From a virus (Duplodnaviria > Caudoviricetes), in the IMG/VR virus record IMGVR_UViG_3300030207_002897, positions 1-58,285 of that record: DNA of 58,285 bases. One strand, 5' to 3'. Both the position numbers and the translations under genes were made by a program. Under the pieces are notes generated by a model. The model saw nothing but the letters and a program-made list of their open reading frames with translations, did no database searches and was not told the origin of the DNA. Positions 28,063-33,772 of the stretch are shown here, piece by piece. Within the stretch, counting starts at the first letter, position 1. Every line of letters begins with the position of its first letter.

Positions 28063-28260
28063 ATGCCCCTTGGTAAAAAGAAAAATAAATCTGACGACCG
28101 CGAAAGTAGACAGGCTGATCGTCGCCAATATAAAATAGATAAGATAGCTGCCATCACCGAGAAGGCTAAGGCAGTTGCTTCTAAAAGGAAATGGTTGGTG
28201 ATATTATTAGTCGTTGGTATAGCGGTATTTATGCTCATCAAATCGAAAGGAATTTTCTAA
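28063..28260 (+). CDS. Small basic membrane protein (one C-terminal TM helix)
   Basis: ATG 28063 with AAAGG; WLVILLVVGIAVFMLI. Confidence 0.7.
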   Translation: MPLGKKKNKSDDRESRQADRRQYKIDKIAAITEKAKAVASKRKWLVILLVVGIAVFMLIKSKGIF

Positions 28261-28445
28261 TGAAGAAGTGGTACGAAAGTAAAACAATTTGGTTTAACGT
28301 AGGTACAATGGCTGTGTCTGGGCTAACTGCTCTAGCTGGTAGTGCTTGGATAGCAGAGAACCCTATAGCTGCAGCCATAGTTACATGTGCTATTGCTATA
28401 GTTAATGTGTTCTTGCGTAAGATAACGGATGAAGGAATCGAATGA
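28260..28445 (+). CDS. Putative holin (2 TM)
   Basis: MKKWYESKTIWFN...VNVFLRKIT pattern of small phage holin-like proteins; TAATG coupling. Confidence 0.65.
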   Translation: MKKWYESKTIWFNVGTMAVSGLTALAGSAWIAENPIAAAIVTCAIAIVNVFLRKITDEGIE

Positions 28446-28693
28446 GTTGGTTTACTGACAATGCACTAGGGGTTATATCTCTAGTAGGTTCAGGGCTCGG
28501 TGCATTTGCCGGTGCTGTGTGGTGGATGAGTGCTTTGTATTCTGAAGTTAAAAGAATAAACACTACACTATCAGACTATATGTCTGACCAAAAAGCACAG
28601 AACGTGCGTGTCTGGGGTGCTATTGATGGCATCGACAACAGGCTGGATGAACATGACAGGCGTATCACTACGATTGAAACAAAGATAGAGTGA
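28442..28693 (+). CDS. TM plus coiled-coil protein (holin/lysis accessory-like)
   Basis: N-terminal TM, C-terminal RLDEHDRRITTIE; ATGA coupling. Confidence 0.6.
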   Translation: MSWFTDNALGVISLVGSGLGAFAGAVWWMSALYSEVKRINTTLSDYMSDQKAQNVRVWGAIDGIDNRLDEHDRRITTIETKIE

Positions 28694-28699
28694 CGCCTG

Positions 28700-29461
28700 T
28701 TAGTTCTTCCTTCTCTTAACTCTTTGTTGGTAGCTATGCTTACGATCCTTTTCTAGTATTGCGAACGCATCCTTCTGCTCTCCCGCTCCGGGGAAACCAT
28801 CAAGGCCTGCCTCGTATGCAACCCTGACGTTTGTCTGGTTCCACTTGTTTCCGTTAGCTCTTTTCTTCTTGCTTAATTTTCTTACTATCTCTGACCAGCT
28901 GGTGCCTGTGTTCTTCCACTCTATCATCTGGCACACTAGCTCTCTTTCTTTGTAGTCTGGTATGAATGCCGCTTGTCCGTCTGATCGAATGATCTTGTAA
29001 CCTATCGGCGACTGCTTATTGACTGGCCTGCCTTGGCCTTTAATCTTAGCCATCGCATCGGTCATCTGTCTGCTCTTTATTTTCCTGTTAAAGGTAGCGT
29101 ATGTTCTTACCAAGTCGAACATTATCTCGCCGCTTGCCGTTGCCATATCAACCCCTGTCTCCAGGATATTAAAATAAATATTTCTTTCTTGCAGCTCCTC
29201 GATAGTATCAACTGCGTTCTCTATGCTGACGAAACATCTATCTAGTTTGTAGGCTATGATGTAGTCGCCGCTGGTCAGTCGGTTAAACAACTCCTCGCCC
29301 GCCTGACGCTCGAATATATTTATTCTCCCGAACACTTCATCATCTACAAAGAACCCCCCGAACTCTCCATCGAATCTATCCAGGCTAGATAAAATAATTT
29401 TTTCCTGGTGTGCCCTGGATAATCCTTCTTCTGATGAGTCTCTTATGTAACCGTAAATCAT
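28700..29461 (-). CDS. Serine recombinase (resolvase family)
   Basis: YGYIRDS, GDYIIAYKLDR, GVDMATASG, PIGY and a C-terminal HTH. Confidence 0.88.
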   Translation of the reverse strand: MIYGYIRDSSEEGLSRAHQEKIILSSLDRFDGEFGGFFVDDEVFGRINIFERQAGEELFNRLTSGDYIIAYKLDRCFVSIENAVDTIEELQERNIYFNILETGVDMATASGEIMFDLVRTYATFNRKIKSRQMTDAMAKIKGQGRPVNKQSPIGYKIIRSDGQAAFIPDYKERELVCQMIEWKNTGTSWSEIVRKLSKKKRANGNKWNQTNVRVAYEAGLDGFPGAGEQKDAFAILEKDRKHSYQQRVKRRKN

Positions 29462-30016: not shown

Positions 30017-31666
30017 TTAACCTTTCAAAATAATTTTAGTTATGTGGCTGGGCGGAACCCAGTATTCATCTACATCCTGTGTCAGTACAGCCAACACAGG
30101 TACCTTTAATTCGTCTGGCCATGGAGTCATGCCATCCGTGATTGCAACTATTACATCTGGCTTCGGGTTAGCCTGAGCTAGCGTGTCTTCAATTAACACA
30201 CCAACATCAGTACCTCCACCACCATTCATCTGAAGTTGCCTCAGTTGATTGTCACTTACATTCTTAGACATAACTACTTTAGTCTTAGCTCCGGTGTCAC
30301 CCGTGATAACACAGACATCCTCGCTGGATCCCAGGTTATCTAATAATTTTTTTATTACTGAGTAAGCCTTGTCGTAATCATCACTCATCATGGAAGCTGA
30401 TGTGTCTAGGCATATTGCAAGCTGTGGTTTCCCACTGCGTTTGACTGGCCTGCATACTCCATGCCCTAGCCCACGCCTATTCAACCTGCGATAAGTTCGC
30501 TTGCCTCCCCTGGATCTAAAATTATTTAGTTTTCCACGGGTCAGCCTGAGTATCATAGACCATGGGTCTTCGGAGATCTTAGATATGGAACGCATCACAT
30601 CCTTCAAGGCGAATGATATGTTACTACCTAAATCGCCCTGAGCTTTGTGACATGCTGATGTTATAAGTGAATCAACATCGGCTTCACTCATTGAGTTTCC
30701 ACCAGCGTCATCACTTGAGCCAGCTATCTCCCAAGCTCTTGGCGTTCCATCTGATAACGAGGATCCATTTCCTCCGGTGCCTGGCGCTGATATTGGTTCG
30801 CCATTCCAGACGAGGGAGCCTGATTCATCTGTTGATATGAAGCCATCTGCTGGCTCGCCATCTGATTCAGCTGAGCGTCCATCACTTGCAGTGCGTTCGC
30901 TGTCCCCTGATTGATCCCGATGATCTGACCCGCTAGTATCTGTAGCTGTCCTTCCATCTGGTTCAACTTCTCCTTCAGTTCCTCCTGCTGATCCTTGTTC
31001 TGCACTAGATTCCCCAGTGTCACTTGGATCGTCGTCAGTTTCTCGTTGAAATCTAACTGAACTTCCTGTATCTTCTCCAGTGTCGCTCGGCCTATCCGAC
31101 CGTTCGTCGTTGGAGTTGCTTTGGTCTTGGCCATCGCTAATTCCTTTCATCAAAATTCTAAAAACTTTTTCTGCGGATTGATTGCCTGTGATCTCAGGTG
31201 TTTGACTGTATGGGTATCGGTCGTGCATCAACCAATCATAACCCACCCTGAACTCACACCATCTACCACTCGTCCCGTGTACCGAGAACTCCTGGTCTAG
31301 TAAATAATTTACTGTTATGTCACAGGCCTCATTCCATTTCTCTCTACTAATCTTTGTAGGATTATTCACTAAGGCGTGGAACCTACGGTGATGTCCCATA
31401 AATATATGACACATCTCATGCAACAAGCACGAACTGATCTCCGCTTGATGCCTATTCTTTAGGTACTCAGGGTCGTAGTACAGATTCAAGAATCTATCTA
31501 CTGCCATAGTGCCTAGCCCTTTGACTGGCACAGTACGCATAGAGAACAGTAAGTCACGGGAGAACTTCCAGTACCTAGCAGCCGTCAGCTTTGCTTGTCG
31601 CAAAACCTCCGGCTCTTTGTGGTTTATTCTAGAATATACTTCCGTTGTCGGCAATGATTTAGCCAT
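30017..31666 (-). CDS. DUF2201-type metallopeptidase-VWA protein
   Basis: TMAVD, HEMCH, WNEACD, acidic linker, and VWA MIDAS residues DTSASM, GGGGTD, ITDG. Confidence 0.9.
   Translation of the reverse strand: MAKSLPTTEVYSRINHKEPEVLRQAKLTAARYWKFSRDLLFSMRTVPVKGLGTMAVDRFLNLYYDPEYLKNRHQAEISSCLLHEMCHIFMGHHRRFHALVNNPTKISREKWNEACDITVNYLLDQEFSVHGTSGRWCEFRVGYDWLMHDRYPYSQTPEITGNQSAEKVFRILMKGISDGQDQSNSNDERSDRPSDTGEDTGSSVRFQRETDDDPSDTGESSAEQGSAGGTEGEVEPDGRTATDTSGSDHRDQSGDSERTASDGRSAESDGEPADGFISTDESGSLVWNGEPISAPGTGGNGSSLSDGTPRAWEIAGSSDDAGGNSMSEADVDSLITSACHKAQGDLGSNISFALKDVMRSISKISEDPWSMILRLTRGKLNNFRSRGGKRTYRRLNRRGLGHGVCRPVKRSGKPQLAICLDTSASMMSDDYDKAYSVIKKLLDNLGSSEDVCVITGDTGAKTKVVMSKNVSDNQLRQLQMNGGGGTDVGVLIEDTLAQANPKPDVIVAITDGMTPWPDELKVPVLAVLTQDVDEYWVPPSHITKIILKG
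30724..31134 (-). CDS. Nested coiled-coil protein in an alternative frame inside the VWA peptidase gene
   Basis: 136 aa, AAAGGA 7 nt before ATG, heptad periodicity, Gln/Met-rich tail. Confidence 0.6.
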   Translation of the reverse strand: MAKTKATPTTNGRIGRATLEKIQEVQLDFNEKLTTIQVTLGNLVQNKDQQEELKEKLNQMEGQLQILAGQIIGINQGTANALQVMDAQLNQMASQQMASYQQMNQAPSSGMANQYQRQAPEEMDPRYQMERQELGR

Positions 31667-32812: not shown

Positions 32813-33772
32813 CTAAAGTTCAATATCACTAAACACATCTGCATTAACATTAACATTTGCCTCGTATTCTGCCCGTCGTGCAGACTCTTCGACTGACTCT
32901 ACGAGTTTGTTGAACTCATCCATCTCAGATAGCAGTGGCTTCAACAACGCAACCTCTGCTCTCCACTTCTCACCTATATCCTTACGGATTCTCATGACAC
33001 GATCGGTTTGATTCTCTCTTGTATTGAGATCATCAAGCTCAGCCTGTATCTTTATGAAGTCTTCTCTCACTACATCGAACAGGGATTTCATACTCTCTGG
33101 TGATGATGATGGTGGGAAGTCTCGTATAACAATACCCATGTCATCAAGATTCTTAGCTAGCAATGTCCAGTCTTCACTGTCCTTGCTGTGCATCCAGTAA
33201 ACCCTGGAGTCTAGCTGCTTGACAAAGAAATTTCTTTCGACATATCTTTGAAGGCTGTCGTTCACCTGAGTGGAATCAATAGTGTCCTCATACTTATCCC
33301 AGTATTTCTTTACTATGTAGTTCACACTAGGTATGTGAGGGTTACTAGAATCCTTCGGGTCTTCGATAGGCTTCGTGTCTTTCTTGCTGGAAAAGAATTT
33401 TATTTCAGGATCTTTGGGATAACCTGGATGCAGCTCATCGTACTTGATTAACCTGACACAGCATGTGAACACATACTCTGTGTCACCTTCACCGTTCTGA
33501 TAGTTGTATCCGATCTCGTACTTATCTCTGCGTCCGTCCTCTCTATCCCAGCTACGCCACATAGGGGTGATGACTGGCCTGAACCTAGTAATACCATATG
33601 AATTACTCTTCCATTCAGACATCGCCCTGTTGAGTACATACTTAAAGTTCTTGGATAGATCTACATCAGGTGCAACGTGACTGCCCATTTCATTTGAGTA
33701 TTCCTCATGGCTGACACGCTTACCCTTCCACATAATGATGTGGCCCATTGCTTCATTCGTCGTCGAGCTCAT
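32813..33772 (-). CDS. Hypothetical protein upstream of the AAA/VWA pair
   Basis: 319 aa ORF with helical C-terminus; start uncertain. Confidence 0.7.
   Translation of the reverse strand: MSSTTNEAMGHIIMWKGKRVSHEEYSNEMGSHVAPDVDLSKNFKYVLNRAMSEWKSNSYGITRFRPVITPMWRSWDREDGRRDKYEIGYNYQNGEGDTEYVFTCCVRLIKYDELHPGYPKDPEIKFFSSKKDTKPIEDPKDSSNPHIPSVNYIVKKYWDKYEDTIDSTQVNDSLQRYVERNFFVKQLDSRVYWMHSKDSEDWTLLAKNLDDMGIVIRDFPPSSSPESMKSLFDVVREDFIKIQAELDDLNTRENQTDRVMRIRKDIGEKWRAEVALLKPLLSEMDEFNKLVESVEESARRAEYEANVNVNADVFSDIEL

Follow-up and report, generated by a model that had tools for sequence, protein, structure and literature searches.

A probable second protein-coding gene embedded in the linker of a DUF2201 peptidase-VWA gene of an uncultured tailed phage

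Introduction

Long genes embedded on the same strand inside other genes are well known in small viruses, and annotation pipelines forbid them; in tailed double-stranded DNA phages, to our knowledge, few have been documented beyond the spanins. The o-spanins (Rz1 family) are recognised by an N-terminal lipoprotein signal with a lipobox cysteine and by their location in the lysis cassette. In phage lambda, Rz1 is a short proline-rich outer-membrane lipoprotein, and its partner in the lysis cassette, Rz, is a membrane protein. The present study deals with a nested open reading frame (ORF) of 136 amino acids (aa), found in the +1 frame inside the linker of a gene encoding a DUF2201 putative metallopeptidase joined to a VWA-like domain (the outer gene), in the complete virus record IMGVR_UViG_3300030207_002897 of IMG/VR; "the window" designates hereafter the whole stretch of DNA analysed, 58,285 bp. 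The lambda Rz/Rz1 pair resembles this locus: Rz1 too is a complete gene with its own start, lying inside another gene of the same orientation and read in its +1 frame (PMC6139136). Rz1 tends to be missed by gene finders, as the nested gene is. Unlike Rz1, the nested product is a predicted long helix encoded within a disordered linker, its host is a peptidase-VWA gene of a replication or early region, and no sequence relationship exists between the two proteins.

In viral overprinted genes more generally (reviews PMC8227390 and PMC3494269), the new frame is narrow-ranged inside an older and widespread gene, codes for an orphan protein and shares out the constraint with the older frame. The nested gene of the window has these three features in common with them: a narrow range, an orphan protein and a constraint divided between frames. 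Out-of-frame genes within genes for structured proteins also tend to be rich in disorder-promoting residues (PMC6139136, citing Rancurel et al.). The window inverts this usual picture, in that the old outer frame is predicted to be disordered and evolves freely at the amino-acid level (dNN/dSN about 1-2), whereas the embedded protein is predicted to be ordered and is the more conserved of the two.

The outer gene itself has its closest described counterparts in the MoxR/vWA systems. In jumbo phages, a MoxR AAA+ ATPase has been described together with a vWA cochaperone that carries a metallopeptidase fused at its N-terminus; the pair was proposed to take part in virion assembly and in peptidolytic processing (PMC7824862). 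In Acidianus two-tailed virus, a MoxR-vWA co-chaperone was modelled with a virion protein having intermediate filament-like properties (PMC3466262). As in these pairs, the window carries an AAA+ ATPase gene followed by that of a vWA protein with an N-terminal metallopeptidase. It differs from them by the embedded gene, which does not appear in the accessible portions of the descriptions, by an ATPase that matches the generic AAA profile only, and by its surroundings, the module adjoining genes for a single-stranded DNA-binding protein (SSB), a helicase and a resolvase and not structural genes. An embedded gene in DUF2201 or VWA genes was not found described in the literature on phage DUF2201, MoxR/vWA and overlapping genes, as far as the available text of these sources goes. 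A deposited genome with a comparable pair of genes is that of the N4-like Escherichia phage EC1-UPM (NC_041906.1), in which gp24/gp25 comprise a distant homologue of the window ATPase (23% identity, E 6e-6) directly followed, as in the window, by an annotated 'VWA-like domain-containing protein' with the motif HELWH. This EC1-UPM gene is 1176 nucleotides (nt) long (391 aa), its linker measures about 30 residues, and the linker holds no same-strand ORF of at least 40 aa.

Results and discussion

The embedded frame and its probable start signals

The nested ORF lies wholly within the outer ORF and begins 532 nt downstream of the outer start, nested codon position 1 falling on outer position 2 and nested position 3 on outer position 1 (coordinates in Table 1). 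A preliminary description, made from the letters of the window, had reported this 136-aa second frame on the same strand, preceded by AAAGGA 7 nt before its ATG, and both the ORF list and direct reading of the sequence bear it out: the ORF has a start and a stop of its own and lies entirely within another ORF in a different frame, which makes it an embedded gene in form. Comparison with related sequences leads us to regard it as very probably a genuine second protein-coding gene. Since both frames are open under translation table 11, an alternative genetic code, also considered, is not needed.

The relatives were obtained from scans of viral and metagenome contigs. A close clade comprises L001, L010, L011, L002, L009 and L012, with outer proteins 95-96%, 87% or 69-72% identical to that of the window. 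A more distant protein entry, P0003 (39% identity to the nested protein; one of the six hits of the nested-alignment profile described below), led to a deep clade of three contigs, L028, L029 and L030, in which the outer protein is just 29% identical to that of the window and a homologous ORF is again found in the +1 frame of the linker. Together with the window this makes 10 contigs, L029 and L030 being identical in the overlap region. The nested ATG, a Shine-Dalgarno (SD)-like motif and the open second frame, whose retention in relatives the preliminary description had put forward as the check, are kept in 10/10 of them, with no stop and no loss of SD or ATG seen; the products range from 118 to 136 aa, and all insertions and deletions between lineages are multiples of three.

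The SD-like motif stands 7-8 nt 5' of the nested ATG in every lineage, as AAGGA, as AGGAG (L028) or as AAGGAG (L030), and the outer residues encoded at this site differ among the three lineages (MKGIS, NSGESN and YKEPDH). In the phage, the SD core precedes 21 of the 41 long ORFs, as compared with 223 of the 2113 ATG triplets overall. Four codons 5' of the nested ATG, all 7 close-clade sequences have a TGA that closes the nested frame, so that translation of this frame must begin at the ATG. The N-terminus, MAKTKATPTTNGRIGR, shows no hydrophobic signal, and the nested protein has no cysteine. Just past the nested stop, at window 30706-30707, a contig from a marine run (X17, about 90% alike) carries a 3-nt insertion that leaves the outer gene in frame.

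Selection on both reading frames

The distribution of nucleotide differences over codon positions changes inside the overlap; outside it they fall mostly on outer position 3, the usual pattern of a coding gene. Between the window and L001, differences at outer positions 1/2/3 number 10/2/0 in the overlap and 10/4/36 outside it. The same switch is observed between the window and L011 (21/3/2 against 27/20/82, Fisher P 3e-9), between L009 and L012 (25/8/5 against 44/33/114, Fisher P 1.5e-8) and between L028 and L030 (71/23/20 against 150/105/257, Fisher P 1e-12). Within the overlap, outer position 3, which is nested position 2, is thus the most conserved one, and the changes shift to nested position 3. 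At the rate observed outside, 26.8 outer third-position changes would be expected in the overlap between the window and L011, and 2 are found (P=5e-11); the corresponding figures are 5 against 41.6 for L009-L012 and 20 against 71.9 for L028-L030. The suppression of synonymous change foreseen for a dual-coding stretch is therefore present. Between L028 and L030, nested position 3 differs at a rate of 0.60, compared with 0.61 at outer third positions elsewhere in the gene; the nested proteins of this pair are identical at 84/118 positions of the overlap (71%) and the outer proteins at 38/118 (32%), the whole outer protein reaching 50%.

An overlap-aware count, in which every site and every change was classed by its effect in both frames (N, nonsynonymous; S, synonymous), was also carried out; it was modelled on what is reportedly the approach of OLGenie. 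The nested dNN/dNS ratio is 0.09, 0.12 and 0.22 in three close pairs independent of one another, and none of 1000 bootstraps reached 1. The outer dNN/dSN ratio of the three close pairs is 2.1, 0.9 and 1.1, with intervals that include 1. The outer frame is nevertheless kept open: when nested codons were resampled with the nested protein held, 6.6-10.6 outer stops were expected according to the lineage, and the probability of finding none was at most 0.0004 in 6/6 lineages (for the window, 7.1 expected, none present, P=0.0004). The nested third positions contain 45-50% G and 8-15% T in five lineages, compared with 21% and 31% in the long ORFs of the phage; this G-rich, T-poor composition avoids outer stops and yields the outer residues D, E, G and A. 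In every lineage, 18-27% of the outer residues in the overlap are acidic. Sites that are 'silent' in the nested frame appear to carry demands of the outer frame, namely the absence of stops and the presence of acidic residues.

Taken together, these data indicate that both frames are maintained by selection, and the view that a tolerant linker hosts a dual-coding region is supported by the low nested ratios and by the phase switch of the substitutions. Population variants, from contigs of four marine runs, bring weak and partial support: among the 40 of 129 rows listed, 4 of 5 differences in the overlap are at outer position 1, and 26 of 34 differences outside it are at position 3.

Predicted product and division of constraint along the overlap

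An AlphaFold2 model of the nested protein, computed from a 10-row alignment, consists of a single helix over residues 16-104, with block-mean predicted local distance difference test (pLDDT) values of 95-98 over residues 21-90 and low confidence in both tails. The heptad pattern noticed initially holds: when hydropathy is averaged over six lineages, the strongest period is one of 3.50 residues, with a power that 0 of 2000 shuffles reach, and the strongly hydrophobic residues are conserved at a spacing of 3-4. The N-terminal tail is basic (isoelectric point 11.2), the helix is acidic with 26 Q and N residues, and the C-terminal tail, which the model predicts to be disordered, is rich in Q, N and M. 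From the helix we infer that the product may self-associate as a coiled coil. A two-copy complex prediction for residues 12-108 gave a score of 0.02 against a mark of 0.42, which provides no answer and is neutral either way.

The constraint is not shared evenly along the overlap. Over nested residues 16-104, the window and L011 are identical at 85/89 nested and 66/89 outer positions, with differences of 20/3/2 at outer positions 1/2/3, and the window and L002 at 57/87 nested and 45/88 outer positions. Over residues 105-136 the window and L002 are identical at 23/32 outer and 13/32 nested positions, and most of the differences are at outer position 3 (17/32). In this last region an outer motif, DESGxLVWNGEP, is recognisable even in L028 and L030. 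Thus over the first three quarters of the overlap, counted from its 5' end, it is the nested protein that is conserved, the outer frame being constrained only to remain open, hydrophilic and acidic, while in the last quarter the roles are reversed, a conserved outer motif facing a drifting nested tail.

The AlphaFold2 model of the outer protein has folded N- and C-terminal domains, with a mean pLDDT of only 56.7 for the whole model; residues 177-277 show no secondary structure and the block-mean pLDDT is 24-29 over residues 181-270. The nested helix corresponds to outer residues ~193-282 and therefore maps onto the predicted disordered outer segment.

Two possible identities of the product were rejected. 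It is not a spanin, having neither lipobox, signal peptide nor membrane segment and being surrounded by AAA+, SSB and resolvase genes; a scaffolding protein is hinted at solely by an Atlas match at 0.76, and the gene lies in the replication region.

Orphan status and origin

A profile made from the nested alignment and searched against 1.84 billion representative proteins gave 6 hits, and a wider profile searched against 5.77 billion proteins gave 7, all of them members of the nested family; so small a number of entries agrees with the expectation that standard gene callers miss the gene. A scan with the wider nested profile returned only contigs already in the set, and no relatives were found for P0006 among viral contigs, nor for A7 and P0006 among genome contigs. 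Among the clusters looked up, P0003 is on a contig of 58,287 nt and P0001 on one of 12,303 nt, the rest being on contigs of at most 1,783 nt. One family member had been named 'chromosome segregation ATPase' by a source, a name that looks like a coiled-coil artefact. Searches of Pfam, PHROGs, PDB and the Atlas assigned the nested protein to no family; Fez1, which stays below its cutoff, c-Fos, SNARE and other matches of this type, with Atlas scores of at most 0.80, were discarded as weak generic coiled-coil look-alikes. In deposited phage genomes, searched at the DNA and protein levels with the outer gene, the outer protein and the nested protein, there was no match; the gene pair has no cultured relative at detectable similarity, and the ATPase alone matches N4-like phages, at 23-25% identity.

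The range of the outer family is much broader and takes in N4-like phages as well as soil and other metagenome contigs that do not have the nested gene (EC1-UPM, L013-L027). Since the nested family is narrow inside this wide one, the nested frame is, by the usual criterion, the younger and overprinted one, and the gene would have been born by overprinting of a disordered linker in the ancestor of the present group of marine phages. A different origin, in which the linker took up a coiled-coil gene that already existed on its own and the outer frame came to be read through it afterwards, would account for a nested helix that is predicted to be highly ordered and is more conserved than its host, which is unusual in young overprinted genes; it also draws on the two most divergent members, P0005 and P0006, which are on contigs of at most 1783 nt and have no visible genomic context. 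We nevertheless consider such a capture unlikely, as neither a stand-alone nor a named homologue was found in the 1.84e9 and 5.77e9 proteins, PDB, Pfam, PHROGs or the Atlas, as all members whose surroundings are visible lie inside this one gene, always in the +1 phase, and as the outer family extends well beyond the members that have the nested gene. This alternative concerns the origin only.

Points against the embedded gene and other explanations

Several points weigh against the interpretation of the stretch as a gene with the role discussed below. The case for it is built on sequence comparison and models, and the link with the AAA+/VWA pair comes only from gene position and literature analogy. 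The relatives are all uncultured marine metagenome contigs and represent only three deep lineages, so that the independent contrasts are few. In deeper pairs the nested ratio rises to ~0.5, a value obtained with distances uncorrected for multiple hits, with an NS class near saturation and on an alignment of low-complexity sequence. Two entries depart from the embedded arrangement: P0002 (311 aa, on a single 1250-nt contig) begins as the outer N-terminal domain and continues as the nested sequence from nested residue ~40, and P0004 (98 aa, on a single 531-nt contig) leaves the nested sequence after about residue 45; they may be assembly errors, or real disruptions and fusions (frameshift variants).

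The openness of the +1 frame, taken alone, is not beyond chance either. This frame contains 45 stops over the whole outer gene and none in codons 173-312, but when synonymous codons were resampled with the outer protein fixed, it stayed open in 14% of cases with the codon usage of the window, in 9% with that of the gene itself and in 10-69% in other lineages (69% for L028); it was open in 11% of trials of permutation within the linker, and in just 0.7% when the order of codons was shuffled. Stops in the +1 frame need a T at outer codon position 2, which corresponds to a hydrophobic residue, so hydrophilic linkers rarely make them, and the linker stretch of the window holds only ten codons of this kind. 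Other DUF2201 linkers are open in the +1 frame as well, over 89-95 codons in several of L013-L021 and over 291 codons in the GC-rich L003. The translations of these stretches are K/R-rich or R/T/A-rich, with no ATG at their head. Open +1 stretches of hydrophilic DUF2201 linkers are thus a generic raw material for overprinting, and they warn against an argument from openness alone.

If the nested frame were reached by ribosomal frameshifting, or only in a frameshift variant, the product would be a fusion of the peptidase domain with the coiled coil and would not be translated independently. P0002 is such a fusion, but it is the only protein of this type among 1.84e9 representatives searched with no length limit, and the most conserved nested residues, 12-45, lie upstream of its junction and would therefore be lost in it. 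Moreover, in the close clade the nested frame is shut by the TGA that precedes the ATG by four codons, conservation begins at M1 (MAK.K), and the SD is found 7-8 nt upstream in all lineages, which makes frameshifting a very improbable explanation.

The openness in resampled sequences and in unrelated DUF2201 linkers gives some credit to the idea of a chance open frame, the helix-like product of which would simply result from reading D/E/S/G/T codons one base further on. This idea leaves unexplained the freeze of outer third positions in three pairs, nested dNN/dNS ratios of 0.09-0.22, a heptad seam conserved across lineages at 26-39% identity and an SD kept in three differing outer contexts, and we see hardly any room for it. 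A constraint on RNA or DNA (mRNA structure or a cis element in the linker) and not on a second protein is equally hard to credit: although the 437-nt stretch folds somewhat better than shuffled sequences (z = -2.46, 1/100 shuffles as good), this value is not decisive and does not account for a constraint with a strict 3-base period that follows the nested codons (their positions 1 and 2 conserved, 3 free), with conservative amino-acid replacements that preserve the 3.5-residue hydrophobic seam, where a structured RNA would predict paired covariation and not codon phase.

Proposed expression and role of the embedded gene

For the embedded gene, we propose that ribosomes would initiate independently at the nested SD and ATG on a polycistronic AAA+/VWA/SSB early-region mRNA, and that the nested product would be a self-associating amphipathic helix. 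By analogy, the filament-like partner modelled in Acidianus two-tailed virus may be regarded as a precedent for a client of filament or coiled-coil type, and the nested protein might work with the adjacent AAA+/VWA pair as a client or adaptor, a role that we put forward tentatively and consider rather doubtful; the preliminary description had suggested, also as a guess, an adaptor, substrate or inhibitor of this machine. It is also conceivable, though we would not expect it, that the long, disordered and acidic linker is mainly a coding vessel, lengthened and kept open so that one mRNA also gives a de novo-born, now highly conserved coiled-coil protein, the dedicated client or adaptor of this pair. 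If this were the case, embedding would lock three functions into a unit inseparable by recombination, about 100 residues of the host protein would be a by-product of another gene, and the disordered linkers of phages would be a general and overlooked nursery for ordered new proteins.

The case is a clean one, with three deep lineages, a phase switch of substitutions and a two-way constraint that can be quantified. It also suggests a search rule, in which hydrophilic linkers (no T at codon position 2) are combined with a codon-phase test that should separate genes from by-products. The nested protein would then be an additional third component of the poorly understood phage AAA+/VWA-peptidase module.

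The outer gene and its genomic setting

Table 1. Position of the embedded gene, its signals, the outer gene and its neighbours in the window.
Feature	Position	Strand	Basis and remarks
Nested (embedded) gene, 136 aa and TAG stop	30724..31134	-	ORF list; +1 frame of the outer gene
Shine-Dalgarno-like AAAGGA	31142..31147	-	Read in the sequence; 7-nt spacer to the nested ATG (31134-31132)
TGA closing the nested frame, 4 codons 5' of the nested ATG	31147..31149	-	Sequence
Nested residues 16-104, predicted amphipathic heptad helix; nested frame dictates evolution	30823..31089	-	AlphaFold2, periodicity, identity
Nested residues 105-136, variable low-confidence tail; outer frame dictates evolution	30727..30822	-	pLDDT 42-57, identity
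Outer gene, 549 aa: DUF2201_N putative metallopeptidase, ~135-aa linker, DUF2201 VWA-like domain	30017..31666	-	Pfam, phrog_1314
HEMCH (HExxH) of the putative peptidase domain, outer residues 83-87	31406..31420	-	Translation
DTSAS (DxSxS) of the VWA-like domain, outer residues 421-425	30392..30406	-	Translation
AAA+ ATPase gene, 371 aa	31677..32792	-	Upstream neighbour, same operon; stops 10 nt before the outer start
SSB gene, 128 aa	29626..30012	-	PF00436 at 3.7e-24; begins 4 nt past the outer stop

The outer frame had been described as intact and as resuming with SDGTPRAWE, and this is what is found: these residues come after the overlap, and both profiles are above their cut-offs, DUF2201_N over residues 35-243 (57.7 bits, cutoff 23.2) and the DUF2201 VWA-like domain over residues 416-533 (45.6 bits, cutoff 26.4). 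The accompanying statement that DUF2201 proteins have a variable acidic linker here stands in part: L003 has a long acidic one, and those of L013-L024 and EC1-UPM are short and K/G/E/Q-rich. D421, S423 and S425 are invariant in 11/11 aligned outer proteins; we take DxSxS to be the mark of a MIDAS-type metal site. The HExxH motif is kept in the close clade and replaced by RILVH in L028 and by REILF in L030, and the sequences of these two homologues (L028:2448-4094, L030:2457-4076) suggest that their peptidase domain is probably inactive. They have also lost the EKWNEACD block, and have kept the VWA DxSxS and the embedded gene. Since the nested gene is present there with DxSxS and without HExxH, its role in these lineages would be independent of peptidase catalysis.

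The window belongs to a tailed phage that is uncultured and gives few matches to known phage families; a helicase, a portal protein and a major head protein could be recognised in it. Marine metagenome runs of several studies carry DNA near-identical or related to it. The outer gene is part of a tightly packed minus-strand operon coding for a 319-aa protein, the AAA+ ATPase, the 549-aa outer protein and SSB, with a serine recombinase/resolvase further downstream. The ATPase matches PF00004 just at threshold (21.3 bits, cutoff 21.2) and phrog_1297 'ATPase' at 4.5e-37, and no MoxR-specific family was found for it at E≤0.01. The order AAA, VWA gene, SSB, resolvase is common to the window, L028 and L030. 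The resolvase of the window (28700-29461, minus strand) matches PF00239 at 4.1e-17, and its counterparts lie just downstream of SSB in both deep lineages (L028:4869-5657, L030:4507-5409); it is an odd companion for a replication module. The 319-aa protein encoded by the first gene of the operon (32813-33772, minus strand) has no Pfam or PHROG match; judged by eye, its C-terminus looks charged and helix-prone. Opposite the operon, on the plus strand, two small overlapping ORFs of 84 and 83 aa (28191-28445 and 28442-28693) have hydrophobic stretches, the second with an additional coiled-coil-like tail, and may code for membrane or lysis proteins.

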